Below, piece by piece: positions 3,919 to 28,327 of a DNA stretch of 43,663 bases; the first letter of the stretch is position 1; every line of letters begins with the position of its first letter. This stretch comes from Vectrevirus T205P5. Where the stretch lies: sequence record OZ035792.1, one strand, 5' to 3'. The translations under genes and the position numbers were made by a program. The notes beneath the pieces were generated by a model. It was not told the origin of the DNA. It was given only the letters and a program-made list of their open reading frames with translations, and searched no databases.

Positions 3919-3996
3919 TAAGATAGCGCCGTTCTTTTGAGCGGCCTATTACTAGCCAATCTTCATAGGGAGGGTTGGAAAGTAATAGGAGATAGC

Positions 3997-5895: not shown

Positions 5896-5903
5896 GCAAC
5901 AGG

Positions 5904-5924
5904 CAGTGCGTAAGCACTGCTTTT
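5904..5924 (+). terminator. Hairpin plus T-tract in the 85-nt gap between the two tailspike genes
   Basis: GCAGTGC-gtaa-GCACTGC followed by TTTT. Confidence 0.4.
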
Positions 5925-5980
5925 CACGCAACTTTTCTTAAAGGTTATCATGGTGGTAGCCTTTCAGAAAAGGAGGTTAC

Positions 5981-7639
5981 ATGCTACAACGATTAAGTTC
6001 TTCACTAGTGAAGCACAAGAGCAAGCTAATAGGCGCTACCTATAGGCTGCTTGGTGATAAGCTTTTAGAGCTAAATAGTGTATCAGATTTTGGTGCAATA
6101 CCAAATCTTGAAACAGATAGTACTAATTCCATTCAAGCTGCAATTGATGCGACCCCGTCTGGTGGTACTCTAGGCTTCTATGGTGGGCCTTATAGATTTG
6201 GTACTGTTACAGTGGATAAACCAATTACACTAGTTGGAGATGCAGATTTGCAGTTTGAGTGCATTCGTATCAAGACAAGTAAGTTTCGTAGTTTCTTGAC
6301 AGGAACACTAACTGCTGCGAGATACGACAGTGCATGTCGTGCATTTCAAATCTTAGCCTATGAAGATGGGCAAGACTATGAGGACATCAAAGTACATGGT
6401 GCACGTTTCGAGGGTTTCTTCTATAACACAGACTTCCGAGGTCGTTCTTACGATGCGTCAGAAAGTGATCCTGCTAACCGAGTAGTTCGGGACACCTCTA
6501 TTATGGGCTGTACTTCAGTTCAACCTAAAGATGGTAAAGACAGAGGGCACTTTCAACACGTAGGTGTTACCAATGCCAAGTGCATAGGTAACTCAACGTA
6601 TGGTGGTAAGAATGCTACTTCTTATAACTTCATTAATGGTAATGGTTCTTTGGTGGTTATGGGTAACTATGACCATGACAATGAATATGGTTCCTTAGAG
6701 ATTGAGAATAACAAGATAAGCTACGGTGTTGTTACTGGTAATATCTTCCATAAACAGCTATGGATAGATGATACTAGCAACATTAACGTAACAGGTAACA
6801 CCTGCACAGATAGGATTTACATTACTGCACAATCTAACAACTCTGAGAACGTATCAGTAGTGGGAAACAATGTACCACGCATCTACGTCAGTAAGTTTGG
6901 TCAAAGCCCAACAGGGCGTCACCGTAACTTGACTATACGTGGTAATCATGTCACGGGCAAGGATGTTCCTAATTGTATATTCTTAGATGATTCTGTTGAT
7001 TCCGCTTCTATTGAAGGTAATGATTGTTATGGTGTGTCTGGTGTTAAAGGCATAGCCATTACTCGTCATGCAGATGCTAACCATACAGTGCGTCATAATA
7101 ACTTACATGGCACTAACTTACTCTTTAGTGGTTCGGGCGGAAAAGTTTATAGTTATGACAACTTTGATGTTGGAGTTGATGAATCCCCTGTGGCAGACAG
7201 AACTGACGCAGTGCACATTGACAACCTTCTTCGTGTAAATGATGAGTACCTTGATTTGCCAGGAAAGTACCTATACAAATCTAAGTATACAAGAGACATT
7301 ACACAAGGTGGCTCAACCACTATTGAGTTACCTGTAACCACAAGTGGTTCTTTGGCTTTTCGTGGTATTAGTTTATGGGTTCTTATCCGTAACACTTCTA
7401 CGGGGAACTTGTCTTCTTATCGTGTAGATGGAAGACATGCAGTAAGTGGTTCTTCTGTGACTGTTAGCTTTGGAGAGAAGTATGGGGTATTAGGAGTGAA
7501 TACTGGTGATGTTACTGTTAGTAATGATGCCTCTACGACTAATCTTATTCGTATCAAGGTAAGCAATGAGCATGTAAGTCAGACAATGCAGGTTACAGTT
7601 GTACCAGAGGTAACAAGCAGATTAGGGACTGAAGAGTAA
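5981..7639 (+). CDS. Tailspike 2: beta-helix depolymerase of unknown specificity
   Basis: AAGGAGG RBS; N-terminal motif SDFGAIPN...TDSTNSIQAAIDA; Asn/Gly/Thr/Val-rich repeats typical of parallel beta-helix tailspikes; no C-terminal chaperone domain and no sialidase Asp-boxes. Confidence 0.8.
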   Translation: MLQRLSSSLVKHKSKLIGATYRLLGDKLLELNSVSDFGAIPNLETDSTNSIQAAIDATPSGGTLGFYGGPYRFGTVTVDKPITLVGDADLQFECIRIKTSKFRSFLTGTLTAARYDSACRAFQILAYEDGQDYEDIKVHGARFEGFFYNTDFRGRSYDASESDPANRVVRDTSIMGCTSVQPKDGKDRGHFQHVGVTNAKCIGNSTYGGKNATSYNFINGNGSLVVMGNYDHDNEYGSLEIENNKISYGVVTGNIFHKQLWIDDTSNINVTGNTCTDRIYITAQSNNSENVSVVGNNVPRIYVSKFGQSPTGRHRNLTIRGNHVTGKDVPNCIFLDDSVDSASIEGNDCYGVSGVKGIAITRHADANHTVRHNNLHGTNLLFSGSGGKVYSYDNFDVGVDESPVADRTDAVHIDNLLRVNDEYLDLPGKYLYKSKYTRDITQGGSTTIELPVTTSGSLAFRGISLWVLIRNTSTGNLSSYRVDGRHAVSGSSVTVSFGEKYGVLGVNTGDVTVSNDASTTNLIRIKVSNEHVSQTMQVTVVPEVTSRLGTEE

Positions 7640-9451: not shown

Positions 9452-9602
9452 GGTAAAGGCTGGCACTAGTCAGCCTATCAAGGCGCAAACCAAGCTCTTT
9501 AACAATTTGGATGGTAGCTTCTTAGTCTGGATAGGTTAAACCTAGGAGATTCTCTTGAGTCTCCTATAATGTAACCTAACTAACTAAATGAGGATTAATA
9601 AC

Positions 9603-9959
9603 ATGGCTATGTCTAATATGACTTACTCTCAGGTTTACAACACCGCTCATGCTGCATTAGTTGAACGTATCTGGAATGATGCTATTGAGTGTATCGATAA
9701 CGCACATGATGCAATCCATGAGGTAGCGGACAGTGCTGTACCAATTTATTATGCTGACATCTTCTCAGTGATGGCGAGTGAAGGCATTGATCACTTCTTC
9801 GAAGACTCCGGCCTGATGCCAGATACTAGGGATGTAACGGTCGTACTACAAGCCCGTATTTATGAACAACTCACCATTGATTTATGGGAACGTGTTCAAG
9901 ATATGATTGTTGCGTACACCAATTACGCTGAGGATTCAGAAGAAGAAGAGGAAGAATAA
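9603..9959 (+). CDS. ocr: Ocr (gp0.3-like) DNA-mimic anti-restriction protein
   Basis: [47 protein letters not shown] closely matches T7 Ocr as recalled; polyacidic C-terminus; GAGGA RBS before the ATG at 9603. Confidence 0.88.
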
Positions 9960-11286: not shown

Positions 11287-13914
11287 ATGCAAGACTTACA
11301 CGCTATTCAACTTCAACTTGAAGAAGAAATGTTTAACGGCGGTATCCGTCGCTTTGAAGCGGACCAACAGCGCCAGATTGCATCCGGTAATGAATCAGAC
11401 ACGGCATGGAATCGCCGCTTATTGTCCGAGTTAATCGCGCCAATGGCTGAAGGTATTCAGGCATACAAGGAAGAGTATGAAGGTAAAAGAGGCCGTGCAC
11501 CGCGTGCATTAGCTTTCATTAACTGCGTAGAAAACGAAGTGGCAGCATATATCACGATGAAAATCGTTATGGATATGCTGAACACGGATGTAACCTTGCA
11601 GGCTATAGCCATGAATGTAGCTGACCGCATTGAGGACCAAGTACGTTTTAGCAAGCTGGAAGGTCACGCCGCCAAATACTTTGAAAAAGTTAAGAAGTCA
11701 CTTAAGGCAAGTAAGACTAAATCATATCGCCATGCGCACAACGTAGCGGTAGTGGCTGAGAAGTCAGTAGCTGACCGTGACGCTGATTTCTCCCGCTGGG
11801 AGGCATGGCCTAAAGACACCTTGCTGCAAATTGGGATGACCTTGCTTGAAATCTTAGAGAATAGCGTATTCTTCAACGGGCAACCTGTCTTCCTCCGCAC
11901 CTTGCGCACTAATGGCGGCAAACATGGTGTTTACTACCTACAGACTAGTGAACACGTAGGTGAGTGGATAACTGCATTTAAAGAACATGTAGCGCAACTT
12001 AGTCCAGCCTATGCACCTTGCGTTATTCCTCCGCGTCCGTGGGTATCACCCTTTAACGGTGGGTTTCATACTGAGAAAGTAGCAAGCCGTATTCGTCTGG
12101 TAAAAGGCAATCGTGAGCACGTCCGCAAGCTGACCAAAAAGCAAATGCCAGCGGTTTACAAGGCTGTTAACGCTTTGCAGGCGACTAAGTGGCAGGTTAA
12201 TAAAGAGGTTTTACAGGTTGTGGAGGACGTTATACGTCTAGACCTCGGCTATGGTGTACCTTCCTTTAAACCACTCATCGACCGTGAGAACAAGCCAGCT
12301 AATCCGGTGCCGTTAGAGTTCCAGCACCTGCGAGGCCGTGAACTGAAAGAAATGCTTACGCCGGAACAATGGCAAGCCTTTATCAACTGGAAAGGTGAAT
12401 GTACTAAGCTGTACACCGCTGAAACTAAGCGCGGAAGCAAATCGGCGGCAACCGTTCGCATGGTTGGTCAGGCCCGTAAATATAGCCAGTTCGACGCAAT
12501 CTACTTCGTGTATGCACTGGACAGCCGCAGCCGTGTATACGCGCAATCTAGCACACTCTCACCGCAATCAAATGACTTGGGCAAGGCCTTGCTCCGTTTT
12601 ACCGAAGGGCAGCGTCTTGATAGCGCTGAGGCGCTTAAGTGGTTTTTGGTGAACGGGGCTAATAACTGGGGTTGGGATAAGAAAACTTTTGACGTGCGCA
12701 CCGCTAACGTGCTGGATAGTGAATTTCAAGACATGTGCCGCGACATTGCAGCGGATCCGCTGACCTTCACTCAATGGGTAAATGCCGATTCCCCTTATGG
12801 CTTCCTTGCATGGTGCTTTGAATATGCGCGTTATCTGGATGCACTGGATGAAGGCACGCAAGACCAATTCATGACGCACCTACCCGTCCATCAAGACGGC
12901 AGTTGCTCTGGTATTCAGCACTATAGCGCGATGTTACGCGATGCAGTAGGTGCGAAAGCAGTAAACCTTAAGCCTTCTGACTCTCCTCAAGATATTTATG
13001 GTGCCGTTGCGCAGGTAGTAATTCAGAAGAATTATGCATACATGAATGCAGAGGATGCGGAAACCTTCACTTCTGGCAGCGTGACTTTAACAGGTGCGGA
13101 GCTGCGTAGTATGGCTAGTGCGTGGGATATGATAGGAATCACTCGCGGCCTGACCAAAAAGCCCGTAATGACACTACCTTATGGCAGCACACGTCTAACC
13201 TGCCGTGAGTCAGTGATTGATTATATCGTTGATTTAGAAGAAAAAGAGGCCCAACGGGCTATTGCGGAAGGGCGTACCGCCAATCCTGTACACCCTTTTG
13301 ATAATGACCGTAAGGACAGCCTGACACCTAGCGCAGCTTATAACTATATGACAGCTTTAATCTGGCCTTCTATTTCGGAAGTGGTTAAAGCTCCTATAGT
13401 GGCAATGAAAATGATTCGTCAGCTTGCACGTTTCGCAGCTAAAAGGAATGAAGGCTTAGAGTACACCTTGCCTACTGGCTTCATCTTGCAACAAAAGATA
13501 ATGGCGACAGATATGCTCCGCGTATCTACTTGCTTGATGGGAGAAATCAAGATGAGTCTACAGATTGAAACGGACGTAGTGGATGAAACGGCTATGATGG
13601 GCGCTGCTGCCCCTAACTTTGTGCACGGTCATGATGCCAGTCACCTTATCTTAACGGTCTGCGACCTTGTTGATAAAGGGATTACATCTATCGCAGTAAT
13701 TCATGATTCTTTTGGCACTCATGCAGGTCGCACCGCAGACCTACGTGATAGTCTAAGGGCAGAAATGGTGAAGATGTATCAAGGCCGTAACGCTCTGCAA
13801 AGCCTGTTAGATGAGCATGAAGAACGCTGGTTAGTAGACACCGGAATCCAAGTGCCAGAGCAAGGAGAGTTTGACCTTAACGAAATCTTAGTATCTGACT
13901 ATTGCTTCGCATAA
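11287..13914 (+). CDS. Single-subunit DNA-dependent RNA polymerase (T7 gene 1 family)
   Basis: 875 aa; matches T7 RNAP motifs as recalled (PWxxxx[25 protein letters not shown]-terminal DYCFA). Confidence 0.97.
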
Positions 13915-14371: not shown

Positions 14372-16360
14372 ATGGCTATTATTCAGAATGTACCGTGTCC
14401 TGCCTGTCAAAAGAATGGACATGATATTACTGGCAACCATCTTATGATATTTGAGGATGGCGCTGGTTACTGTAACCGTGGTCACTTCCATGATAATGGG
14501 AAGCCTTATTACCATAAGCCAGAGGGTGGTATCGAGATAACCGAATTGCCTATTACTGGCAATATCAAATATACACCCTCTCAATTCAAAGAAATGGAGA
14601 AGGAAGGGAAGATAAGCGACCCTAAGCTACGCGCCATCGCACTTGGTGGTATGCGTATGAAAGACCGTTGGGAGGTTATGAATGAGCAAGAAAGGGCAGA
14701 CCAAGAAGCAGAGTGGAAACTTGATGTTGAATGGTTCCTCACGCTTAAGCGTAAGAACCTTGTATCCCGTCACATTCGAGGTGACATCGCAGCAATGTAC
14801 GATGTGCGCGTTGGACACGATGAAGAGGGAAGAGTCAACCGTCACTATTATCCACGATATGAAAAGGGTGTGCTTGTTGGAGCAAAATGCCGGACGTTGC
14901 CGAAGGATTTTAAGTTCGGACACCTAGGTAAACTCTTTGGTATGCAAGACCTTTTCGGTATGAACACTTTGTCTCACGTGTTAGACAAGGGGAGACGAAA
15001 GGATTGCTTGCTTATTGTAGGCGGTGAACTTGATGCACTAGCAGCGCAGCAGATGCTCCTTGATTCTGCCAAGGGTACTAAGTGGGAGGGTCAGCCATAC
15101 CATGTATGGTCTGTCAACAAAGGCGAGTCTTGCCTTGAAGAGATAGTGCAGAACCGCGAGCATATCGCCCAATTCAAGAAGATTATATGGGGTTTTGATG
15201 GAGATGAGGTAGGGCAGAAGCAGAATCAGCAAGCGGCTCGCCTGTTTCCTGGCAAATCCTATATCCTTGAATATCCCTCTGGTTGCAAAGATGCTAACAA
15301 GGCATTGATGGCTGGCAAGGCTAAAGAGTTTGTAGATGCATGGTTTAATGCCAAGTCATCTGATGAAGTCTTTGGTAGCCAGATTAAATCTATCGCATCT
15401 CAAAGGGATAAGCTCAAGGCTGCACGTCCAGAGCAAGGACTATCATGGCCTTGGCCTAAGCTGAACAAGGTAACGCTAGGTATTCGTAAGAATCAGCTTA
15501 TCATTGTAGGTGCAGGGTCTGGTGTAGGTAAGACTGAGTTCCTTCGTGAAGTAGTTAAGCACCTCATTGAAGAACACGGTGAATCTGTAGGCATCATTTC
15601 TACAGAAGACCCGATGGTCAAGGTGTCCCGTGCTTTTATCGGCAAGTGGATTGATAAGCGTATTGAGTTACCGCCAACCAACGACCCGAAAGAAGATGGA
15701 TACCGTGAGGTGTTCGACTACACCGAGGAAGAAGCTAACGCCGCCATTGATTATGTAGCTGATACAGGTAAGCTGTTTGTAGCTGACCTAGAGGGTGACT
15801 ATTCGATGGAAAAGGTAGAGCAAACTTGCCTAGAGTTTGAGGCTATGGGCATTTCTAATATCATCATTGATAACTTAACGGGGATTAAATTAGATGAGCG
15901 TGCTTTTGGTGGGAAGGTTGGTGCACTTGATGAATGCGTCAAGCGGATTGGTACTATCAAAGACCGACACCCGGTTACTATATTCCTTGTATCACACCTT
16001 ACACGTCCTCCGGCAAACCGTACCCAACACGAAGAAGGTGGCGAAGTTATCCTTTCTGACTTCCGAGGCTCAGGCGCTATCGGATTCTGGGCATCTTACG
16101 CCTTGGGGATTGAGCGTAATACAAGAGCTGAAACGCTTGACGAAAGGACTACCACGTACATCTCATGTGTCAAAGACCGCGACCAAGGTATCTGGACTGG
16201 AACCAAGGTCATGCTTAAGGGTGACATTCAAACCGGACGTTTAATGGAACCACAAGCCCGTACTAAGTCATTTGACACCGGCGAAGCAAGGCAACAAGAA
16301 GTACCGGATTTACCGGACACTATAGAAGAGACTAACTTCGATGAAGAAAGTGAGTTCTGA
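14372..16360 (+). CDS. DNA primase/helicase (T7 gp4-like)
   Basis: N-terminal Cys4 zinc ribbon (CPACQ...CNRGH), TOPRIM-like VGGELDALA, Walker A GAGSGVGKTEF, acidic C-terminal tail ending EESEF. Confidence 0.95.
   Translation: MAIIQNVPCPACQKNGHDITGNHLMIFEDGAGYCNRGHFHDNGKPYYHKPEGGIEITELPITGNIKYTPSQFKEMEKEGKISDPKLRAIALGGMRMKDRWEVMNEQERADQEAEWKLDVEWFLTLKRKNLVSRHIRGDIAAMYDVRVGHDEEGRVNRHYYPRYEKGVLVGAKCRTLPKDFKFGHLGKLFGMQDLFGMNTLSHVLDKGRRKDCLLIVGGELDALAAQQMLLDSAKGTKWEGQPYHVWSVNKGESCLEEIVQNREHIAQFKKIIWGFDGDEVGQKQNQQAARLFPGKSYILEYPSGCKDANKALMAGKAKEFVDAWFNAKSSDEVFGSQIKSIASQRDKLKAARPEQGLSWPWPKLNKVTLGIRKNQLIIVGAGSGVGKTEFLREVVKHLIEEHGESVGIISTEDPMVKVSRAFIGKWIDKRIELPPTNDPKEDGYREVFDYTEEEANAAIDYVADTGKLFVADLEGDYSMEKVEQTCLEFEAMGISNIIIDNLTGIKLDERAFGGKVGALDECVKRIGTIKDRHPVTIFLVSHLTRPPANRTQHEEGGEVILSDFRGSGAIGFWASYALGIERNTRAETLDERTTTYISCVKDRDQGIWTGTKVMLKGDIQTGRLMEPQARTKSFDTGEARQQEVPDLPDTIEETNFDEESEF
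16307..16330 (+). promoter_or_regulatory. SP6-type phage RNAP promoter embedded in the 3' end of the primase/helicase gene
   Basis: GATTTACCGGACACTATAGAAGAG; encodes PDLPDTIEE. Confidence 0.7.
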
Positions 16361-17567: not shown

Positions 17568-17675
17568 GCATTATGCCACGTGATTATGATTCTGATTGGG
17601 ACTATTATGACTCAATGAATCCAAAACCCGAACGTTCAGATGATTACTACGAAACAGAGGCAATGTATGAATACT
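17568..17675 (+). CDS. Small acidic ORF (35 aa), hypothetical
   Basis: GGAGGT RBS; overlaps the DNA polymerase start. Confidence 0.3.
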
Positions 17676-20213
17676 ATTGATTGGAAGAAGGAAGCGGAAG
17701 GGCGGATCCTAGTTATGGACGCCGAAGCAAAAGGCTTGCTTGATGCCATACGCTATGGTCATCGTGAAGATGTGCACATCATTTGCTGCATGGATTTACT
17801 CACCACTGAGGAGTTCCTATTCTTCGACCCATATGAGATGCGTGACCCTGAGGCAAGGGAGCGCCTGAAGGAGTGGGAAGGCCATCAAGACGGAACCTTG
17901 GTTGATGGTGTTAACTTCCTGAAGCATTGTGAAGCTATTGTGTCACAGAACTTCCTAGGGTATGACGGACTTCTCTTTGAGAAAGCATTCCCTGATATTT
18001 GGAAAGGCTTTAACTATACCGAGAAGCGCGGTAAGGGCAGACTCCGTGCTGACCTGTGTCCGGTGCGAGTCATGGATACGCTGGTGATGAGTCGCCTGTT
18101 AAACCCCGATAGACGCCTCCCTCCGCAAGCATATGCCAAAGGTATGGGTAACGTCGCCCCTCACTCAATTGAGGCGCACGGCATCCGTATAGGCCGCTAT
18201 AAACCGGAGAACGAGGACTGGTCTAAACTAACTGACCACATGGTTCACCGTGTACGTGAGGACGTGGCGATTGGTCGTGACTTGTTCCTCTGGCTCTTTA
18301 ACGGGGAATGGATGGAGCACAAACGCCGTGGCGTGAATAAACGCACTGGCCTAGGTATTGAGACAGCCTTCCACATGGAGTCCATTGTGGCGCTGGAGAT
18401 GAGCCGTCAGGCAGAGCGTGGATTCCGTCTGGATATTGACAAAGCTTTGGCCCGATGCGAAGAATTGGACGCTAAGATTGATGAGACAGTCGCAGCGTTC
18501 CGCCCTCACATGCCTATGCGTATCAAGTCTAAACCTTTTAAACCGGAAGAAAAGAATGAAGTATGCCAACGCGCAAATGAGTATGGAGCTAGCAACAATA
18601 TACCTACTGTCCTTGACCCCTCACACTTTCTTCATGCCGAGAGACGAGGAGATCGCAAGACAGTATGGAGTGTCACTACTAAGTCTGGTGATTGGTCGGC
18701 TAGTGTCAAGAAAGACTTTCCTCACCTTAGAGGAAACCGTAATGACACGCCAAGCATCAAGTGGATTGGCGCTTACTCGCCTGTTACTTTCGAAGAGATT
18801 CCCTTGGGTAACAGGGATACAGTTAAGCAAGTGCTCTATGATTATGGATGGAAAGGTGTTGAATTTAACGATACCGAGCAAGCGCATCTCGATGAGTATG
18901 GCGTATTACCAAAACCTTGGAGTGGAAAGATAAATGAAAAGTCTCTTACTTTATGGCAAGAGAGAGCCGCACGTGAAGGTAAAACAGTACCCGATTGGTG
19001 CTTGGGTATCGCTGCATGGTACATACTCGTATCCCGTCGTGGTCAGATACTTAACCGTGGTGACGTTGAAGCCTTCAACGAGAAGGGAACGTGGCCCTCG
19101 CAGGCTGGTGTACGAAAGTGTCGCGGCCTTGTACCTGTAGCATTCAACAAGGAGCTAGGAATCAATGCGCAGCAATACTACGAAAGGTACGGATGCTGGC
19201 CTACGTCAGACAAGGATGACGGGGAGTGGCGTGTTCCAGCTGTTGCTATTAGCATTGGCACTTCTACGTTCCGTATGCGTCATCGTAACGTGGTTAATAT
19301 TCCTGCCCGTGGCTTGTATCCTTTACGTGATTTATTCATAGCAGGTAAAGGCAAGCTAATCCTTGGTTGTGACGGTGCAGGTCTTGAACTGCGCGTCCTG
19401 TCTCACTTCATGAATGACCCTGAGTACCAAGAGATTGTATTGCATGGTGACATCCATACACATAACCAGATGAAGGCTGGTCTTCCTAAGCGTGACATGG
19501 CGAAGACGTTTATATACGCTTTCCTCTATGGCTCTGGTATAGCTAACCTTGCAGCAGTCTGCGGTGTTACTGAGGAAGAAATGAAGGAAGTTGTGGCAAG
19601 ATTCGAGATTGAACTACCGTCTCTTGCACGTCTTCGTGAGAATGTTATCGCACAAGGTAACAAGTTTGGCTACCTGCAAGCACCTGATGGGCATTGGGGT
19701 CGCATCCGCATGTCTGGTGGTGAACTTAAAGAGCACACGATGCTTAACGTATTACTCCAGATGACTGGCTCTTTGTGTATGAAATATGCATTAGTCAAGG
19801 CATTTGCAGTAATGCGCAAGGAAGGTGTAGCTTTGGATGCTATGGGAAATCCTTGTGGTGTGGCTAACGTGCATGATGAAATCCAGATGGAAGTTCCTGA
19901 AGAGGAGGTCTTGTATCTTAACTACGACCTACCTTTCACCTTAGATGGGTTCGAAACAGAGAAGGCTGCCGTGCAAGCAGTGTTCGATGCAGAGGAGAAA
20001 CGTGTTCATGTGGATTCTGAAGGACGTATGTGGTCCGCTGCAAACCTCGTTAGTGTTGATGCTGATGCTGGTGTATTGCATTGCCAGCGCCGTTATCACC
20101 GTGCAGGTCATATCATTGCCGACGCCATGACTTGGGCAGGGCAGTATCTGAAGATGCGTTGCCCGATGGCAGGCGAATATAAGATTGGCGCAAGTTGGAA
20201 GGAAACACACTGA
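17667..20213 (+). CDS. DNA polymerase, family A, with N-terminal 3'-5' exonuclease domain
   Basis: Motif A DGAGLELRVLSHF, motif B RDMAKTFIYAFLYGSG, motif C VHDE; AGAGG RBS before the internal ATG at 17667. Confidence 0.9.
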   Translation: MNTIDWKKEAEGRILVMDAEAKGLLDAIRYGHREDVHIICCMDLLTTEEFLFFDPYEMRDPEARERLKEWEGHQDGTLVDGVNFLKHCEAIVSQNFLGYDGLLFEKAFPDIWKGFNYTEKRGKGRLRADLCPVRVMDTLVMSRLLNPDRRLPPQAYAKGMGNVAPHSIEAHGIRIGRYKPENEDWSKLTDHMVHRVREDVAIGRDLFLWLFNGEWMEHKRRGVNKRTGLGIETAFHMESIVALEMSRQAERGFRLDIDKALARCEELDAKIDETVAAFRPHMPMRIKSKPFKPEEKNEVCQRANEYGASNNIPTVLDPSHFLHAERRGDRKTVWSVTTKSGDWSASVKKDFPHLRGNRNDTPSIKWIGAYSPVTFEEIPLGNRDTVKQVLYDYGWKGVEFNDTEQAHLDEYGVLPKPWSGKINEKSLTLWQERAAREGKTVPDWCLGIAAWYILVSRRGQILNRGDVEAFNEKGTWPSQAGVRKCRGLVPVAFNKELGINAQQYYERYGCWPTSDKDDGEWRVPAVAISIGTSTFRMRHRNVVNIPARGLYPLRDLFIAGKGKLILGCDGAGLELRVLSHFMNDPEYQEIVLHGDIHTHNQMKAGLPKRDMAKTFIYAFLYGSGIANLAAVCGVTEEEMKEVVARFEIELPSLARLRENVIAQGNKFGYLQAPDGHWGRIRMSGGELKEHTMLNVLLQMTGSLCMKYALVKAFAVMRKEGVALDAMGNPCGVANVHDEIQMEVPEEEVLYLNYDLPFTLDGFETEKAAVQAVFDAEEKRVHVDSEGRMWSAANLVSVDADAGVLHCQRRYHRAGHIIADAMTWAGQYLKMRCPMAGEYKIGASWKETH

Positions 20214-20329
20214 TGGATAGGCTTGACATTGTTTACCTATTCTTCACTTTCTTTCTTACACTCCTTATGCTTGCTTGTTATGGGAGTATGAGACTAGATA
20301 TACCTGATGAAGAAGAGGGTTACGACTAA
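20213..20329 (+). CDS. Small membrane protein (38 aa), hypothetical
   Basis: ATG overlaps the polymerase stop; hydrophobic VYLFFTFFLTLLMLACYG. Confidence 0.3.
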   Translation: MDRLDIVYLFFTFFLTLLMLACYGSMRLDIPDEEEGYD

Positions 20330-20427
20330 TGCAAACTGCTTTTATTATTCTTGGTATCATATTATTTATGGTAGTATTCTGGGCTTTCTCTGGCATTGAC
20401 CCAGATTGTGATGGTAACTACGACTGA
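20329..20427 (+). CDS. Small membrane protein (32 aa), hypothetical
   Basis: Start overlaps the upstream stop; hydrophobic FIILGIILFMVVFWAF. Confidence 0.25.
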   Translation: MQTAFIILGIILFMVVFWAFSGIDPDCDGNYD

Positions 20428-20486
20428 GTTATACTCAAGGTCACTTACGAGTGGCCTTTATGAATAACTTAACTGGAGGAAATATA

Positions 20487-21044
20487 ATGGATGAACTGAA
20501 CACTAAGATGCTCAAGAAAGTTTATAATCTTGTATATAGTATCACGGGCCTACAATTCTACCCTGTAGGCGGTGCGGTTCGTGACACCCTGTACGGATTA
20601 ACACCTAAAGACTATGATATGGTGTTGCCTGTAGGGTCTATGGCAGATTCTCAGGCGCACGAAATCATGGAAAATATCTCTGAAGAGATGGCAATTATGG
20701 GATTTAGTACCAAACTCTACCAATCATACGGTATCAATTTAGGTTATGAAATCAACCCTACCTCTTTTCAGGCTATGTTCCTTAGCTGCATGAAAGTGCA
20801 GATGCGTAATTGCCAACTTGATTTGCTTCTTTCTAAGGCTGAAACCATCCAAGATCATGTACGTAAGCACGATTGCAATATGAATATGGTGTGGTTCGAT
20901 GGTAAAGATATCAAGTGGGAGCACGGCGGTGTTACTCCTTTCGTTCCTGTGTTAGAGTTCAACCCTGACGGATGTGATCGTCGCATTGCTTACATGGACA
21001 AGAAGCGCCATGAACTTATCCGTCACAAATTAATGCATCTTTGA
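20487..21044 (+). CDS. Nucleotidyltransferase, CCA-adding/poly(A) polymerase head-domain family (pol beta superfamily)
   Basis: YPVGGAVRDTLYGLTPKDYDMVL matches the catalytic head motif of class II tRNA nucleotidyltransferases (E. coli CCA: [23 protein letters not shown]); only about 185 aa, so head domain only; GGAGGA RBS before the internal ATG. Confidence 0.6.
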   Translation: MDELNTKMLKKVYNLVYSITGLQFYPVGGAVRDTLYGLTPKDYDMVLPVGSMADSQAHEIMENISEEMAIMGFSTKLYQSYGINLGYEINPTSFQAMFLSCMKVQMRNCQLDLLLSKAETIQDHVRKHDCNMNMVWFDGKDIKWEHGGVTPFVPVLEFNPDGCDRRIAYMDKKRHELIRHKLMHL

Positions 21045-21068
21045 TTTACCGGACACTATAGAAGGAAG
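21043..21068 (+). promoter_or_regulatory. SP6-type phage RNAP promoter
   Basis: GATTTACCGGACACTATAGAAGGAAG; followed by an AT-rich TAGGT-repeat leader. Confidence 0.8.
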
Positions 21069-21130: not shown

Positions 21131-21508
21131 ATGTCTATGGTAACTACTCTGGTATTTGTAGCTCAATACTTTCGTGGTCTGGCTAATAAGTTCAAGTCCA
21201 AGGCTATCAAAGCTATTGAGTCTCGCATCGAGGCAGTACAGGCAGAGCAAGTTAAAGTTGAAGAACATCGTAGTTCTCAAATGATTGACTGCCATAACCG
21301 CTACTATGCATCTCGTGATGACCTTAATGCACGCCAAGTCAAAGAGGTTGAAGAGATGCTGGCACGTCACCAGCAAGAGCGCGACAGCCTGAAAGCTGAA
21401 TTTGAAGAGAACAAGGCATCCATCGCCCTTGTACATCAAGCCGCATCTGACAACCTGAAGAAAGAGATTGTTATGCTGGAAATTGAGTTAGACAACCTGA
21501 CCAAATAA
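21131..21508 (+). CDS. Hypothetical coiled-coil protein (125 aa)
   Basis: AGGAGA RBS; heptad-like charged sequence. Confidence 0.55.
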   Translation: MSMVTTLVFVAQYFRGLANKFKSKAIKAIESRIEAVQAEQVKVEEHRSSQMIDCHNRYYASRDDLNARQVKEVEEMLARHQQERDSLKAEFEENKASIALVHQAASDNLKKEIVMLEIELDNLTK

Positions 21509-21530
21509 TTACTGGACACTATAGAACAAT
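21507..21530 (+). promoter_or_regulatory. SP6-type phage RNAP promoter (TATAGAAC variant)
   Basis: AATTACTGGACACTATAGAACAAT. Confidence 0.7.
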
Positions 21531-21585
21531 AGGTCGGCTTAGTTCGGCCTATGATTGTGTAGTGTAACAATAGGAGACTAAATAA

Positions 21586-22392
21586 ATGGCACGTGGTGAT
21601 TTTGATTTTGGTGCTCAGGTTACTAAAGCTGAAGGTAAGGTTTTTAAGAACCCTGAAGTTGGTGATCATGAAGCAGTAATCTCTGGCATCATTCATGTGG
21701 GTTCCTTCCAAGATATCTTTAAGAAAGGTAATACCACTGAAGTTAAGAAGCCAGCAAACTTTGTTCTTGTTAAGATTGTACTGATGGGTGACGATGACAA
21801 GAACGAAGATGATTCTCGCATGGAACAGTGGATGGCTGTGCCTCTTAAGTCTGGTGACAAGGCAACCTTGACTAAGTTCCTGAATGCAGTTGACCCTAAA
21901 GAGCTGCTTGGTGGTTTCGATGACTTCATCGGTGAATGCCTGACTGCAACTATGGTTGGCTCTGGAGACAAGAATGATGATGGTACTTTCAAGTATGTTA
22001 ACTGGAAAGGCTTTGGCGGTATGCCTGATAAGTTGAAGAAGCTTGTACTGGCTCAGGTAGAAGAGGAAGGTCTGTCTATGACAGGTCATATCACCTTCGA
22101 CAAGCTGACCAAAGAAATCCTTGATGACATCCCAGCTAACTTGGTGCGTCAATACTTCCTTAATGAAACACCTCGTGGTAAGAACCTGTCTGTTGCTGGT
22201 TCTCACGTAGAAGCAATCATTAAAGCTGCTCGTGAAGAAGACCCAGAATGGAAGAAGGCTAAGAAGAAAGATGACGAGGATGCTACTCCAGCTAATCGTA
22301 AATCTCTGGATACTGGTGAGTCTGTTCCACAGGAAGTACCTGAAGCAGAAGACACTCCTGCACCGGAGATGGATGAGGACGCGGAATATTAA
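21586..22392 (+). CDS. Acidic-tailed protein (268 aa), possible single-stranded DNA-binding protein
   Basis: High-expression codon usage; C-terminal acidic tail ending EMDEDAEY, like the polymerase-docking tails of T7 gp2.5 and gp4; no direct sequence match recognised. Confidence 0.4.
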   Translation: MARGDFDFGAQVTKAEGKVFKNPEVGDHEAVISGIIHVGSFQDIFKKGNTTEVKKPANFVLVKIVLMGDDDKNEDDSRMEQWMAVPLKSGDKATLTKFLNAVDPKELLGGFDDFIGECLTATMVGSGDKNDDGTFKYVNWKGFGGMPDKLKKLVLAQVEEEGLSMTGHITFDKLTKEILDDIPANLVRQYFLNETPRGKNLSVAGSHVEAIIKAAREEDPEWKKAKKKDDEDATPANRKSLDTGESVPQEVPEAEDTPAPEMDEDAEY

Positions 22393-22401
22393 GGAGAAAG
22401 G

Positions 22402-22620
22402 ATGAAAGTACAAATCGTAACCCTGCACTGCAAGAAAGGTATCACAACGCTCGGAGGTGGCACTTTCCACTCTTTCTCCGAAGGGGAGATTTATGCTGAC
22501 CTGCACTACATCTGGCGCGACGGACAGCACGTGGTGAACTACAGCGACCCAGCTACGGGGAAACGCCACGGCGTATCGCTTCCGGCGCATGACATTGCTC
22601 AGGTGAACACAGTTTTATAA
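22402..22620 (+). CDS. Hypothetical protein (72 aa)
   Basis: AAGGAGA RBS; ORF-track ORF. Confidence 0.5.
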   Translation: MKVQIVTLHCKKGITTLGGGTFHSFSEGEIYADLHYIWRDGQHVVNYSDPATGKRHGVSLPAHDIAQVNTVL

Positions 22621-24431: not shown

Positions 24432-24826
24432 AATCATCGGAGGTAGCAGCTTATAAGAGGGAATTGCTAGAGAAGCAAGGATGGAAGTGCCCCCTATGTG
24501 GCGGCAGTCTCAAGGCTGTTACTCCTATAAACCGTGTACTTGACCATGACCATGAGACAGGATTCTGCCGCGCTGTTGTATGTCGAGGTTGCAATGGTGC
24601 AGAAGGAAAGATTAAGGGTGTTATCTCTGGTTATGGTAAGGCTGGTAACAACCGTTACTTTCAGCTTCAATGGTTAGAGCGACTATATGAATACTGGAAG
24701 TTACATAGTACGCCTCAGACAGATAAGTTATATCACAAACATCAAACGGAGGCAGAGAAGCGCGAGGCTAAGAACCGTAAGGCACGCCTTGCTTATGCAA
24801 GAAAGAAGGAGGTTAAAGTTGGGTAA
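24416..24826 (+). CDS. Endonuclease VII-type Holliday junction resolvase
   Basis: CPLCGG...LDHDHETG...CRGCNGAEG...WLERLYEY matches T4 endonuclease VII (CLICQ...LDHDHE...CNLCNAAEG...WLENL) as recalled. Confidence 0.85.
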   Translation: MVSKLKSSEVAAYKRELLEKQGWKCPLCGGSLKAVTPINRVLDHDHETGFCRAVVCRGCNGAEGKIKGVISGYGKAGNNRYFQLQWLERLYEYWKLHSTPQTDKLYHKHQTEAEKREAKNRKARLAYARKKEVKVG

Positions 24827-25826
24827 GCTTCGCAGCTTGTACAAAGACTCCGAGGTACTTGATGCAATCGAGCAAGCTACCGACGAGAAAGGTAATGTTA
24901 ATTACAATGAGATGGCACGTGTATTATCGTGTCACCCTGTGGGTAAGAAGATTACCCGCCAGTTGGCTCGATACTGGCATGGTCAATTCAAGAAGACCAA
25001 GAAGAATGGTGATTATTACCAGACCCTTCTGCAAGAAGATAAGCGTATCAAAGAAGAGCGTAAGCTCAGGACTCCTGACCGCTACGAGGATTTGGCTATT
25101 GTTCCATTGCCTGACTCGCCTCATCGAAGTGTACTGGTGATACCTGATACTCATGCACCTTATGAGCACCCAGATACCCTAGAGTTCCTTGCAGCCGTGG
25201 CAGCACGTTACCGTCCAGACACAGTGGTACACCTAGGAGATGAGGCAGACAAACATGCCTTGTCATTCCACGATTCGGACCCAAATCTGGATAGTGCTGG
25301 CATGGAGTTAGAGAAGGCTCGTATCTTCATGCACAAATTGCACAAGATGTTCCCTGTGATGCGCCTGTGTCACTCCAACCACGGCTCTATGCACTTCCGT
25401 AAGGCAAGCGCCAAGGGCATCCCTGTGCAATACCTGCGCACCTACCGTGAAGTTTTCTTCCCGCAGGGAGGTGGCGACCAGTGGGATTGGCAGCATACGC
25501 ACGTCCTTGAGTTGCCGAATGGTGAACAAGTGGCATTCAAGCATCAACCTGCTGGCTCTGTCCTAGCAGATGCAGCGCATGAGCGTATGAACCTGGTGTG
25601 TGGTCACTTGCACGGTAAGATGTCTGTGGAGTACGCACGTAATACACATGAACAGTATTGGGCTGTGCAGGGTGGCTGCTTAATTGATGAGTCATCCCGT
25701 GCATTTGCCTATGGGCGTGAGTCTAAATACAAGCCAGCATTAGGTTGTGTGGTTATTCTGGAAGGTGTGCCTCATATTGTCCCGATGCAAACCAATAGCG
25801 ACAACCGTTGGATTGGCAAGATTTAG
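24819..25826 (+). CDS. Calcineurin-like metallophosphoesterase (Ser/Thr phosphatase family)
   Basis: Motifs PDTHAP, HLGDEADKH, SNHG, GHLHG; probable TTG start 6 nt after AGGAGG, overlapping the endonuclease VII stop. The start is uncertain; internal ATGs exist. Confidence 0.75.
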   Translation: MGKLRSLYKDSEVLDAIEQATDEKGNVNYNEMARVLSCHPVGKKITRQLARYWHGQFKKTKKNGDYYQTLLQEDKRIKEERKLRTPDRYEDLAIVPLPDSPHRSVLVIPDTHAPYEHPDTLEFLAAVAARYRPDTVVHLGDEADKHALSFHDSDPNLDSAGMELEKARIFMHKLHKMFPVMRLCHSNHGSMHFRKASAKGIPVQYLRTYREVFFPQGGGDQWDWQHTHVLELPNGEQVAFKHQPAGSVLADAAHERMNLVCGHLHGKMSVEYARNTHEQYWAVQGGCLIDESSRAFAYGRESKYKPALGCVVILEGVPHIVPMQTNSDNRWIGKI

Positions 25827-25846: not shown

Positions 25847-25926
25847 GCTAGGTAAGACTTTATCGGCTGGCGTATCCAAATGATATTGCACTAGCCCTTG
25901 ATTGTATAGTGAATGGAGGATTCAAT

Positions 25927-26430
25927 ATGTCACACTATGAATGTAAGAAGTGTCATAAGCGTTATGATTACTGTACTTGTGGTCAAGAGAAAACATCTTT
26001 TAAAGTTGGAGACAAGGTATTTCGTAATGAAAAAGATTCTATTCCTTGGAATCAATACTGCAAAGAAGCTGGTATTGACCCTGATAGCCCTGTAACCATA
26101 GATGATATTGATGGCATTAACTTGTGCTTTCGTGAGGTGAGGGGTACAGGTTGGGATTCCAAAAAATTCAAACTTGCATCTGATAAGTTAGACAACAATA
26201 TGGTAACTCAGCCTAAGCACTACGAGTTCTTTGATGGTGTAGAGGCAATCACTATCATTGCCCGCAGTATGACTGAAAAGCAATTCGCTGGGTACTGCAT
26301 GGGTAATGCCCTTAAGTATCGCCTGCGTGCAGGTAAGAAGTTCAATACTGAAGAAGACTTGAAGAAGGCAGACTATTATAAAGAGTTATTCCAGAAGCAT
26401 CGTCACGAATGTATTGATGAGGATATTTAA
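25927..26430 (+). CDS. Hypothetical protein with N-terminal zinc-ribbon-like CxxC...CxC
   Basis: GGAGGA RBS; YECKKCHKRYDYCTCG motif. Confidence 0.55.
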   Translation: MSHYECKKCHKRYDYCTCGQEKTSFKVGDKVFRNEKDSIPWNQYCKEAGIDPDSPVTIDDIDGINLCFREVRGTGWDSKKFKLASDKLDNNMVTQPKHYEFFDGVEAITIIARSMTEKQFAGYCMGNALKYRLRAGKKFNTEEDLKKADYYKELFQKHRHECIDEDI

Positions 26431-26431
26431 T

Positions 26432-26605
26432 ATGGAAGGTAAACTGTATAGAGGGTACTTCGGTAACTTATATAAAGTAAGCTCTCGCGGTTTTGTATTG
26501 ACCTCTGATGATGAAGGTGCAATGTGGCACCTAAGTGCATATGGTTCTAACTTAGCATACTTTAAAGAGGCAATAGTCAAAGGTGTGATGAAGGAGGTGA
26601 AATGA
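26432..26605 (+). CDS. Small hypothetical protein
   Basis: GAGGA RBS; translationally coupled between neighbouring genes. Confidence 0.4.
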   Translation: MEGKLYRGYFGNLYKVSSRGFVLTSDDEGAMWHLSAYGSNLAYFKEAIVKGVMKEVK

Positions 26606-27549
26606 ACATCTTCCAATTCCTAGGTCTTCCAGAAGACCACCGCAATCATCCATTCATGCTGGTGAAGCATCGCGGTGAAGTTCCTGAGAAGAAACTTACT
26701 TTTCCATGTTATGCACAGGTGAAACGAGATGGAATATTCAGTGCTGTTGTGGTGCGCAATGATGGTGCTGTTGCCGTCTTTGGTCGTACTGGTAAGAAGC
26801 TCGCAAATGTTGAAGCCTTGGAAAAGACATTTAGTGTATTTCCTGTCGGGTTGTATCTTGGTGAGTTGCAATCTATGGCTGTTGATGTTTATCTTGAAGC
26901 TCTGTCAGGAGTGGTAAACCCTAATCGTACAGAGCCACTTGACTTCATAGGCCAGCAGATTAAAGACAACCTGTATATCGACTTCTTCGATATGTTAACT
27001 ATTAAGGCATTCCATGATGGATTCACTGATGTTTCTTATCTCAAACGTTACGATGCTTTACATCGTCGTATCGGCACTCATCTTAGCGGGTGCAACGCTA
27101 TCCTTCCTATCACTCCTTGCCATAATGAGCGAGAAGTTGAAGCGTTTGCGCAAGAGCAAATAGATGCAGGACGTGAGGGTGCTGTATTCAAACTGGACTG
27201 CGATTATGAAGCAGGACACAAAGGTTATCGTCAGACTAAAGAAGTCCGTAAGGTAACTTATGACCTTACTTGTATTGGCTTTGAAGAAGGTAAAGGTAAA
27301 TACAAAGGTAAGGTAGCTAACCTCATTTTCAAGTGGAAAGGGGGCAAGACAATCAAAGCTATGCTCGGTAAAGGGTGGACTCATGCAGATGCAGAACAGA
27401 TGTTCCACGACATTAAACATGGTGGACGATTGAATGTCATTGGTAAAATCTTTGAAGTCAAAGGTCTTCAGGATTCAAGCAAGGGCAACATTCGTCTGCC
27501 CAAAGCGGGAGAATTAAGACATGACAAAGATGAACCAGATTTCTTTTGA
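26602..27549 (+). CDS. ATP-dependent DNA ligase (T7 gp1.3-like)
   Basis: Motif I KRDG in CYAQVKRDGIFSAVVV, motif IV-like EGAVFKL, C-terminal OB-domain motif LPKAGELRHDK. Confidence 0.8.
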   Translation: MNIFQFLGLPEDHRNHPFMLVKHRGEVPEKKLTFPCYAQVKRDGIFSAVVVRNDGAVAVFGRTGKKLANVEALEKTFSVFPVGLYLGELQSMAVDVYLEALSGVVNPNRTEPLDFIGQQIKDNLYIDFFDMLTIKAFHDGFTDVSYLKRYDALHRRIGTHLSGCNAILPITPCHNEREVEAFAQEQIDAGREGAVFKLDCDYEAGHKGYRQTKEVRKVTYDLTCIGFEEGKGKYKGKVANLIFKWKGGKTIKAMLGKGWTHADAEQMFHDIKHGGRLNVIGKIFEVKGLQDSSKGNIRLPKAGELRHDKDEPDFF

Positions 27550-27746: not shown

Positions 27747-27869
27747 ATGCTTGAGATGATTCTCAAGCCTTCTTCTCCGAAGGTGACTAAGACTCATGAA
27801 GAGTTAATCGTTGATGAAGTGAAGCGTTACATCATGGATTGTGTCAGAGCACAACTGGTGGTCCAATGA
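27747..27869 (+). CDS. Small hypothetical protein (40 aa)
   Basis: AGGA RBS; its stop overlaps the GNAT start (ATGA). Confidence 0.3.
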   Translation: MLEMILKPSSPKVTKTHEELIVDEVKRYIMDCVRAQLVVQ

Positions 27870-28327
27870 TACGTCCAGCTTCCTTCCTAGATATTCCTGA
27901 GATTATAAACCTTGGGAATAAATATGTGGAAGAGGAAGTCAAGGTAGTGGCCCATCACTCAGCCTCATGGAATGCAGAACAAAGCGCACATAACCTTTGC
28001 GCATCTCTTAGTAGGGAAGATTTATTCCTATGGGTTGCTGTAGATGAAGGGCGGATTGTAGGGTTCCTGTGGGCTGGCTATCACGAGTTGGCCCCTTGGA
28101 CACCTGTAAGGGTTGCCTCTGACATTCTCTTTTATATTATACCAGAGAAGCGAGGAACACTACTTGGTATGCGTCTCATCAAAGCCCTAAAGCAATGGGC
28201 TAGTGATAATGAATGCTCTGAGGTTCGCCTGTCTATCGCCTCTGGTATTAATGAAGAACGTGTCGGACGTATGTATAAGCGACTTGGCTTTGAACCGTTT
28301 GGCACTGTGTATAACCTGAAGTTCTAA
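27866..28327 (+). CDS. GNAT-family N-acetyltransferase
   Basis: IVGFLWA...ILFYIIPEKRGTLLGMRLIKAL...VRLSI...RMYKRLGFEP contains the acetyl-CoA-binding motif of the GNAT fold; about 153 aa. Confidence 0.75.
   Translation: MIRPASFLDIPEIINLGNKYVEEEVKVVAHHSASWNAEQSAHNLCASLSREDLFLWVAVDEGRIVGFLWAGYHELAPWTPVRVASDILFYIIPEKRGTLLGMRLIKALKQWASDNECSEVRLSIASGINEERVGRMYKRLGFEPFGTVYNLKF

Follow-up and report, generated by a model that had tools for sequence, protein, structure and literature searches.

A phage nucleotidyltransferase reduced to the class II head domain and carried in an exchangeable slot near the DNA polymerase gene of Vectrevirus

What can a nucleotidyltransferase of the CCA-adding/poly(A) polymerase type do for a phage when it is only 185 amino acids (aa) long? 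The question is raised by an open reading frame (ORF) at positions 20487..21044 on the + strand of the DNA of Vectrevirus T205P5 (sequence record OZ035792.1), the whole stretch of which, 43,663 nucleotides, was analyzed and is called the window below. The coding sequence spans 558 nt with the stop codon (21042-21044). A Shine-Dalgarno sequence, GGAGG, is located 7 nt before the ATG at 20487 (20475..20479, + strand), and an identical 558-nt coding sequence is annotated in GenBank relatives (for example OR424385, 12300-12857). The ORF is real. Analysis of its product revealed a class II (CCA-adding/poly(A) polymerase type) nucleotidyltransferase that is cut to the head domain and one further helix, the start of the neck.

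Residues 25-46 of the translation read YPVGGAVRDTLYGLTPKDYDMV. They contain motif A (residues 28-46, GGAVRDTLYGLTPKDYDMV; 20568..20624, + strand), in the form expected of class II enzymes, with GGAVRD at residues 28-33, a triphosphate-binding GG, and metal-binding D42 and D44 in a DxD pair (D42-Y-D44). Conservation was read from 44-60 divergent representatives of the family with overall identity down to 21-41%. G28, G29, D42 and D44 were 100% conserved in both sets of representatives (60 and 44), and motif A as a whole is essentially canonical. The Pfam head domain PolyA_pol (PF01743) was matched at residues 25-84 only, with a borderline score (E 7.6e-5, 23.5 bits against a gathering cut-off of 23.0), and three homologues (P0002, P0003 and P0020) score 15-22 bits on the same model, below the cut-off. 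In contrast to this partial match, PHROG 1614 ('nucleotidyltransferase') covers the protein nearly over its full length (residues 19-174, E 2.7e-39). When the profile of the family was compared in hhalign with one of 20 canonical class II enzymes, the probability was 98.8% and E was 4.7e-16 over 176 columns. An initial annotation of this locus had placed the catalytic head motif of class II enzymes, GGAVRD followed by DYD, in a protein of about 185 aa, and the three profile comparisons agree with it. Sequence searches of the PDB gave alignments confined to the motif A of CCA-adding enzymes with solved structures and of poly(A) polymerase I (PAP I).

An AlphaFold2 model built from 23 homologues was confident (pLDDT 90.2, pTM 0.85), and the predicted three-dimensional fold of the head domain is that of class II enzymes. 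The top seven matches in a structure search were PAP I and A-, CC- and CCA-adding enzymes, with terminal uridylyltransferases next; the canonical structures compared were CCA-adding 1miv, 3h37 and 1ou5, A-adding 4wby, CC-adding 3wfo and Escherichia coli PAP I 3aql. The profile search and the structure prediction proposed as checks in the initial annotation thus gave a PF01743 head domain just above the cut-off and a confident model. The other head family named there, NTP_transf_2, was not matched in Pfam even at E up to 10, and DUF1814 gave no match either. PADLOC, too, found nothing in the 185-aa protein. The absence of neck, body and tail had been predicted as well and is borne out by the sequence, which stops after one helix past the head and contains no PF12627 domain. 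Beyond this C-terminal helix nothing more of the neck, no body and no tail are found, while canonical phage enzymes recovered in the same searches have them; 18 canonical enzymes from viral loci are 357-417 aa long.

Sequence and model together suggest a stand-alone class II core that would add nucleotides without a template to the 3′ ends of RNA, most likely of tRNA, in an optional role; we give this proposal about an even chance. The enzyme would transfer a nucleotide from a nucleoside triphosphate (NTP) to a free 3′-OH by two-metal-ion catalysis without a template. Abundant RNAs with an exposed, single-stranded 3′ end would be the most probable acceptors, tRNA in particular; a missing terminal A or CCA might be restored at this end, or the end otherwise remodelled, during infection. 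Such an activity would provide an optional fitness or counter-defence benefit, not a core function. We regard the tRNA 3′ end as the leading candidate because the best structural relatives are all enzymes acting on RNA 3′ ends and because tRNA ends are the most abundant accessible substrate. Tailing of the poly(A) polymerase kind comes second among the candidates to restoration or remodelling of tRNA 3′ ends.

That the protein has an activity at all is suggested by its C-terminal part as well as by motif A. The C-terminal helix (residues 164-184) carries R166 (20982..20984, + strand), which hhalign aligns to the Arg of the EDxxR sequence of motif D and which is invariant in 60/60 and 44/44 representatives. 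Since both the catalytic carboxylates and R166 are invariant, the enzyme is probably active, and the invariance of catalytic residues at 21-41% identity argues for an active enzyme under selection.

Several observations weigh against the proposal of tRNA 3′-end addition. The third catalytic carboxylate is likely D112 (20820..20822, + strand), a candidate chosen from its conservation (97% of 60 representatives and at least 90% in alignment A3) and from its position in a predicted strand (residues 110-116), and hhalign does not align D112 to the canonical Glu. Canonical enzymes recognize the ribose with RRD of motif B, EDxxR of motif D is their amino-acid template for the base, and the BxA motif helps to position the 3′ end (PMC2910056). 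Motif B of the phage protein is degenerate: HDCNMN at residues 128-133 (20868..20885, + strand) aligns in hhalign to canonical RDxxxN, with D129 present in 98% and N133 in 97-100% of representatives and a family form (F/H)DCNxN. In place of DxxRRD the protein reads DHVRKHD (within it, RKHDCNMN begins), and the Arg-Arg pair is not conserved across the family. The residues aligned to BxA, in a low-confidence part of the alignment, are L99-S-C101, and a basic-x-acidic pair is not conserved. In motif D the ED varies, and two extra residues precede the Arg. With RRD, BxA and ED not conserved, specificity for sugar and base, and even the class of acceptor, cannot be read from the sequence; since the RRD ribose sensor and the ED base template are among them, the nucleotide used may differ from CTP and ATP. 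The RNA-binding domain PolyA_pol_RNAbd (PF12627), present in canonical phage enzymes, had no match in the 185-aa protein. The family is acidic (median isoelectric point 5.1, with 57 of 60 members acidic), which fits poorly with a self-sufficient RNA binder and may mean that a partner or a non-RNA target applies. ARAGORN found no tRNA genes in the window, enterobacterial hosts own Cca, so that the need for additional CCA repair is not obvious, and the searched literature yielded no biochemical or genetic experiments on any family member. Because the protein is acidic, has no RNA-binding module and is altered in motifs B and D, our confidence in nucleotide addition to tRNA ends is moderate.

Two more specific identities were considered and found unsupported. 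A genuine class II CCA-adding enzyme is argued against by the loss of RRD, BxA and ED, by the missing neck, body and tail, and by the scores on NCBIfam CCA models (NF009811, 25.4 against a cut-off of 469; NF008137, 18.2 against 451; NF009812, 18.7 against 624). Bacterial poly(A) polymerase I (PcnB) is ruled out by the scores on TIGR01942 (26.2 bits against 305.65) and NF008634 (17.4 against 702) and by the lack of a C-terminal PolyA_pol_RNAbd domain. The curated CCA and PcnB cut-offs are missed by more than 10-fold. The usual label, 'tRNA/CCA nucleotidyltransferase', probably over-annotates the family, which lacks the elements by which CCA-adding enzymes are identified.

The PcnB scores also bear on a functional alternative, in which the protein would add untemplated tails in the manner of poly(A) polymerases. 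Such tails would mark 3′ ends of host or phage RNA for 3′-exonucleolytic decay and so speed up host RNA turnover or tune transcript stability. We consider this rather unlikely: the match to TIGR01942 is 26 bits where 306 are required, and the protein is acidic and brings no RNA-binding domain with it.

The distribution of the family was examined next to its motifs. A hidden Markov model search of 1.84 billion representative proteins returned only 212 clusters; among the matches listed most are 160-235 aa long, and canonical cellular enzymes account for only a few of the clusters. By its near-full-length match, its length in the range of about 170-200 aa and its phage context, the 185-aa protein belongs to PHROG 1614. 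A tblastn search identified 198 phage records with the family, nearly all of them from Autographiviridae-type podophages, with Pectobacterium (57), Klebsiella (50), Vibrio (41), Proteus (15), Aeromonas (11) and others as hosts. Structural matches in BFVD come from phages PS3, PP2, phiAS7, LKD16, phiNV3 (Pseudomonas) and Pantoea LIMEzero, and also from Caulobacter Cd1, Acinetobacter and Ralstonia phages. No family members were found in bacteria or archaea when one genome per species was searched (185,579 species); the only matches there were motif-A matches to cellular CCA/PAP genes. When IMG/VR was scanned with the family alignment, seven of 80 loci (L007-L013) proved to be true short members, and the remaining ones were canonical enzymes of 385-600 aa or giant ORFs matched through motif A. 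Domain fusions were sought among the distant matches and rejected, the long proteins being ordinary or concatenated canonical enzymes. We conclude that the family is a compact, separate phage family and not a collection of truncated genes.

Some side observations were made in these searches. The giant ORFs (about 1,350-1,720 aa) with a class II head motif occur in several IMG/VR viral contigs (among them L023, 5644-10416; L027, 5686-10848; L042, 4774-9750; L067, 652-5643; L068, 2261-7171) and resemble neither the 185-aa family nor ordinary CCA enzymes of 400 aa. The N-terminal half of another match, P0104, is unannotated. The close homologues P0002 and P0003 bear a precomputed Pfam label, PF26128, which may stand for a recently curated family of just this phage protein.

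Minimal nucleotidyltransferase (MNT) antitoxins AMPylate HEPN toxins, and antibiotic nucleotidyltransferases modify small molecules. The phage enzyme could similarly have an acceptor that is not a nucleic acid, nucleotidylating a host protein or small molecule and thereby neutralising a host defence or factor. A small, acidic, single-domain protein would suit such a task, and so would the patchy, host-correlated spread of the gene, which resembles that of counter-defence genes: according to PMC7693777, the gene is present in 37 of 46 Pectobacterium Autographiviridae and in 60 of more than 500 others. The best structure and profile matches are, however, class II enzymes of RNA 3′ ends, motif A is of the GG type and remnants of motifs B-D are still present; no NTP_transf_2/MNT match in Pfam, no PADLOC match and no conserved adjoining partner gene speak for this alternative, which we therefore hold to be unlikely.

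The family has been met before. Many records carry the labels 'nucleotidyltransferase', 'tRNA nucleotidyl transferase' or 'polyA polymerase', and the Vectrevirus copies of the gene are labelled just 'hypothetical protein' in GenBank. By Evseev et al. 2020-2021 (PMC7693777, PMC8472413, PMC9145550) the family is called 'tRNA nucleotidyltransferase (TRNT)' and no experiments with it are given; there the proteins are modelled on tRNA nucleotidyltransferases and their role is left open (PMC7693777, PMC8472413). The family is already known and annotated, not novel, and the novelty implied by the initial annotation was set too high, given these annotations and the discussion in the three papers. There is nothing unusual about the gene as a sequence feature: it is one of the accessory genes of T7-like phages that are known and annotated.

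In the Vectrevirus genome the gene sits in a defined slot. On the left, an intercistronic RNA hairpin (20425..20471, + strand; -17.3 kcal/mol, z -3.39) precedes the gene. It is identical in phages LL11, ULINTec7, T205P4 and T147P1, including relatives without the nucleotidyltransferase gene, and may serve in the processing or the stability of RNA. The left cassette boundary, AACTTAACTGGAG, contains the Shine-Dalgarno sequence. On the right, a promoter of the phage RNA polymerase, ATTTACCGGACACTATAGAAGG (21044..21065, + strand), abuts the stop codon and forms the boundary. Its 15-mer GGACACTATAGAAGG occurs exactly at 21051-21065. With up to three mismatches allowed, 11 matches to GGACACTATAGAAGG were counted in the window against 1.19 expected, all of them on the + strand (128, 2233, 3902, 14014, 16315, 17006, 21051, 21514, 22660, 25828 and 31032).

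Between these two boundaries, the relatives differ. At least three states of the slot were distinguished, and the flanks, ...AACTTAACTGGAG-ORF-TGATTTACNGGACACTATAG, are identical in all of them. It is empty in LL11 (66 bp; L002, 3637-3703), holds an unrelated 86-aa ORF in ULINTec7, T205P4 and T147P1 (L137, 886-1146; L138, 886-1146; L139, 887-1147) and holds the nucleotidyltransferase gene in the window (20425-21065) and in Escherichia phage vB-Eco-KMB47. The junction TGATTTACNGGACACTATAG is found also 3′ of the alternative 86-aa ORF in relatives, and AACTTAACTGGAG is likewise common to both cassettes. The 86-aa ORF (PHROG 35123) is homologous to the gene directly 3′ of the nucleotidyltransferase gene in Proteus phage PM116 (E 4e-9 to 4e-8), which suggests an ancestral tandem pair of nucleotidyltransferase gene and 86-aa ORF followed by differential loss or exchange.

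When the 1.8-kb region around the gene was used as a query, most of it was found in only four of 92 matching records, and the best of the rest align over about 68-69%. LL11 was checked and is without the gene. A truncated allele of 101 aa (P0024), which matches the first 46% of the protein at 92% identity, is present in a 44.5-kb phage contig and is consistent with a dispensable gene. Thus, the nucleotidyltransferase gene is an optional, exchangeable cassette in Vectrevirus. The statement in the initial annotation that such an enzyme does not belong to the T7 core set agrees with these counts and with the state of LL11.

A gene of half the canonical length that is missing from most close relatives and has a truncated 101-aa allele could also be a decaying, functionless remnant of a full-length CCA-adding enzyme. 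This seems to us the least credible of the explanations considered, because family size is constant over the 212 clusters, catalytic residues are invariant at an identity as low as that given above, the AlphaFold2 model is confident, the ribosome-binding site is good and, in several lineages, the gene directly adjoins or overlaps that of the DNA polymerase. Recent decay of a full-length enzyme was rejected in view of the constant size and the invariant residues. An optional but probably active gene in a slot with natural variants (empty, 86-aa ORF or nucleotidyltransferase) and identical flanks offers an easy and clean genetic test of its role, be it in maintaining tRNA 3′ ends, in counter-defence or in replication.

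The family also has a characteristic position. In all 11 genomes sampled the gene lies in the replication (middle) module on either side of the DNA polymerase gene, at distances from a 4-nt overlap to 1815 bp. The genomes represent ten Autographiviridae genera and one Chaseviridae phage; they share ancestry and are not phylogenetically independent. The gene overlaps the DNA polymerase gene by 4 nt in fHeKpn01, where it is downstream, and in PP47, where it is upstream. It is separated from it by 2 nt in PS3, 3 nt in phiAS7, 38 nt in PM116, 273-278 nt in the window and Erwinia phage S2, 597 nt in KF1, 686 nt in Koot and 1038 nt in PP16. In Myduc, the Chaseviridae phage, the distance is 1815 nt and the primase-helicase gene alone lies between. 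No conserved small partner gene beside the nucleotidyltransferase gene was found in the 11 genomes, where only the neighbours in Koot and PP16 match one another.

This adjacency raises the possibility of a terminal transferase linked to replication, which would work with the phage replisome on primer or DNA 3′ ends, for example to make or restore RNA ends in ...CCA-3′ that can serve as primers, or would use deoxynucleoside triphosphates. The position near the DNA polymerase gene in 11/11 genomes, with overlaps in fHeKpn01 and PP47, would fit such a role, as would the loss of the ribose-sensing RRD of motif B. A further point in favor is that T7 can prime its lagging strand from host tRNA by way of the terminal ACCA-3′ (Zhu et al. 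2012, cited through PMC11506809). On the other side, the site in Vectrevirus is a swap slot, the 11 genomes are related by descent, most Vectrevirus phages replicate without the gene, and the primase-helicase of the window is intact. A direct link to replication appears distinctly unlikely to us. The flanks of T7 gene 5 hold accessory genes (4.3-4.7 and 5.3-5.9). Since the flanks of T7 gene 5 are accessory and the Vectrevirus site is a swap slot, the adjacency, striking as it is, may reflect where insertions are tolerated.

A broader formulation sees in the protein a terminal transferase peculiar to phages, whose specificity for sugar or base has changed with the loss of the RRD ribose sensor and the ED template and which works not in tRNA repair but at the replisome or by nucleotidylating a component of host defence; it is likewise improbable in our estimate. 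It would explain why the gene keeps its place next to that of the DNA polymerase throughout ten Autographiviridae genera and in one Chaseviridae phage. If a terminal transferase working at the replisome were true, it might generate or restore RNA primers ending in ...CCA-3′ or tail the ends of DNA or primers.

The initial annotation had suggested a set directed against host anticodon nucleases or 3′-end-targeting toxins, in which the nucleotidyltransferase rebuilds CCA, a metallophosphoesterase (24819-25826) heals and an ATP-dependent ligase (26602-27549) seals RNA ends. The product of 24819-25826 is a calcineurin-like phosphoesterase. All three genes lie in one middle-gene block of the window, and in Providencia phage PS3 just one small gene stands between the nucleotidyltransferase gene and a metallophosphoesterase gene. 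The ligase, however, is an ATP-dependent DNA ligase with PF01068 and DNA_ligase_OB_2 (PF14743) domains, whose LL11 counterpart is annotated as DNA ligase and noted as an exact match to SP6 gp25. LL11, which has no nucleotidyltransferase gene, keeps the other two genes in unchanged positions, under the names 'phosphoesterase' and 'DNA ligase'. Phage records number 642 for the phosphoesterase and 198 for the nucleotidyltransferase, neither an RNA ligase nor a polynucleotide kinase was found among the proteins scanned, and in the window the three genes stand apart from one another, as the initial annotation had already remarked. With no adjacency, no co-variation and no RNA-specific ligase, the repair-set hypothesis is unsupported and, in our judgement, very improbable. 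A T4-type RNA repair system was rejected on the same grounds of a DNA-type ligase, the distribution in LL11 and the record counts. The nucleotidyltransferase gene thus occurs independently of those for the phosphoesterase and the DNA ligase.

The remaining features of the window are those of a nearly complete Vectrevirus genome, a K1E/K1-5/SP6-like podophage (Autographiviridae, Molineuxvirinae). Over the 1.8 kb around the nucleotidyltransferase gene the identity to Escherichia phage vB-Eco-KMB47 is 99.7%. Compared with GenBank relatives the window is circularly permuted, with the late region first. It encodes the terminase large subunit (326-2227) and two different tailspikes (span 3937-7639), of which tailspike 1 (3937-5895) has an endosialidase-chaperone Peptidase_S74 domain and tailspike 2 (5981-7639) a weak pectate-lyase-like match; we take this to be the dual arrangement known from K1-5-type phages. 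Further along are ocr (9588-9959), an early-region anti-restriction gene whose product is strongly homologous to Ocr, the DNA mimic of T7 (PF08684, E 4.7e-42), and the genes for RNA polymerase (11287-13914), primase-helicase (14372-16360) and family A DNA polymerase (17640-20213). The G+C content of the nucleotidyltransferase gene is 42.3% against 45.2% for the window, a difference that does not mark the gene as foreign.

Next to the gene lie the DNA polymerase gene, two very small ORFs for membrane proteins and an ORF of 125 aa of the coiled-coil kind. The small ORFs, of 38 and 32 aa, overlap each other directly 3′ of the DNA polymerase gene (20213-20329 and 20329-20427); they have hydrophobic cores and acidic tails, are kept in relatives and are single-pass membrane proteins according to the LL11 annotation. 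The product of the 125-aa ORF (21131-21508) is called 'polysaccharide chain length determinant protein' in PHROG 7450 and some RefSeq records, a name that seems doubtful since Pfam gave only a sub-threshold match and the sequence has a coiled-coil look. An ORF of 384 aa on the - strand (21436-22590) is antisense to three + strand genes and probably spurious, because the annotations of relatives seen for this region comprise + strand genes only. Two accessory middle genes were also noted: 25909-26430 encodes a DUF3310 protein (E 7.6e-25), a nucleotide kinase according to the LL11 annotation, and 27839-28327 a GNAT acetyltransferase (E 1.4e-9).

Comparison with known systems places the Vectrevirus protein as follows. 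It belongs to the same family as the Autographiviridae TRNT, or PHROG 1614. The name TRNT implies CCA addition, for which the motif analysis of the Vectrevirus protein gives no support, and the accessible text of the TRNT papers (PMC7693777, PMC8472413, PMC9145550) mentions neither the slot structure nor the position near the polymerase gene. A stand-alone head-domain protein of the CCA-adding enzyme type is known from Streptococcus pneumoniae (NP_344798.1, PDB 2la3, 191 aa). It is 13% identical to the phage protein, and full-length PAP and CCA enzymes match the latter better in structure; it is cellular and not phage-encoded, the title of its PDB entry names no function, and a link between the two is not established.

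Small enzymes of the Pol-beta superfamily, to which the phage protein belongs, also include MNT antitoxins (HEPN-MNT) and MenT/AbiEii toxins. Minimal nucleotidyltransferases act in phage-host conflict, and some of them on tRNA 3′ ends. Their motif A is of the GS type, whereas that of the phage protein is of the class II GG type. MNT systems have an adjoining HEPN or antitoxin partner, which the phage gene lacks, and are host defence loci, while the phage protein is encoded by virulent phages. An MNT (HEPN-MNT) antitoxin was ruled out by the lack of an NTP_transf_2 match, a HEPN neighbour and a PADLOC match. Canonical class II enzymes are about 360-420 aa long and have RRD, BxA, ED, body and tail, in contrast to the phage protein of 185 aa, which is without them. 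The family represents a natural minimal catalytic core of a well-studied enzyme class, and its choice of substrate and nucleotide would reveal the abilities of a head domain by itself.

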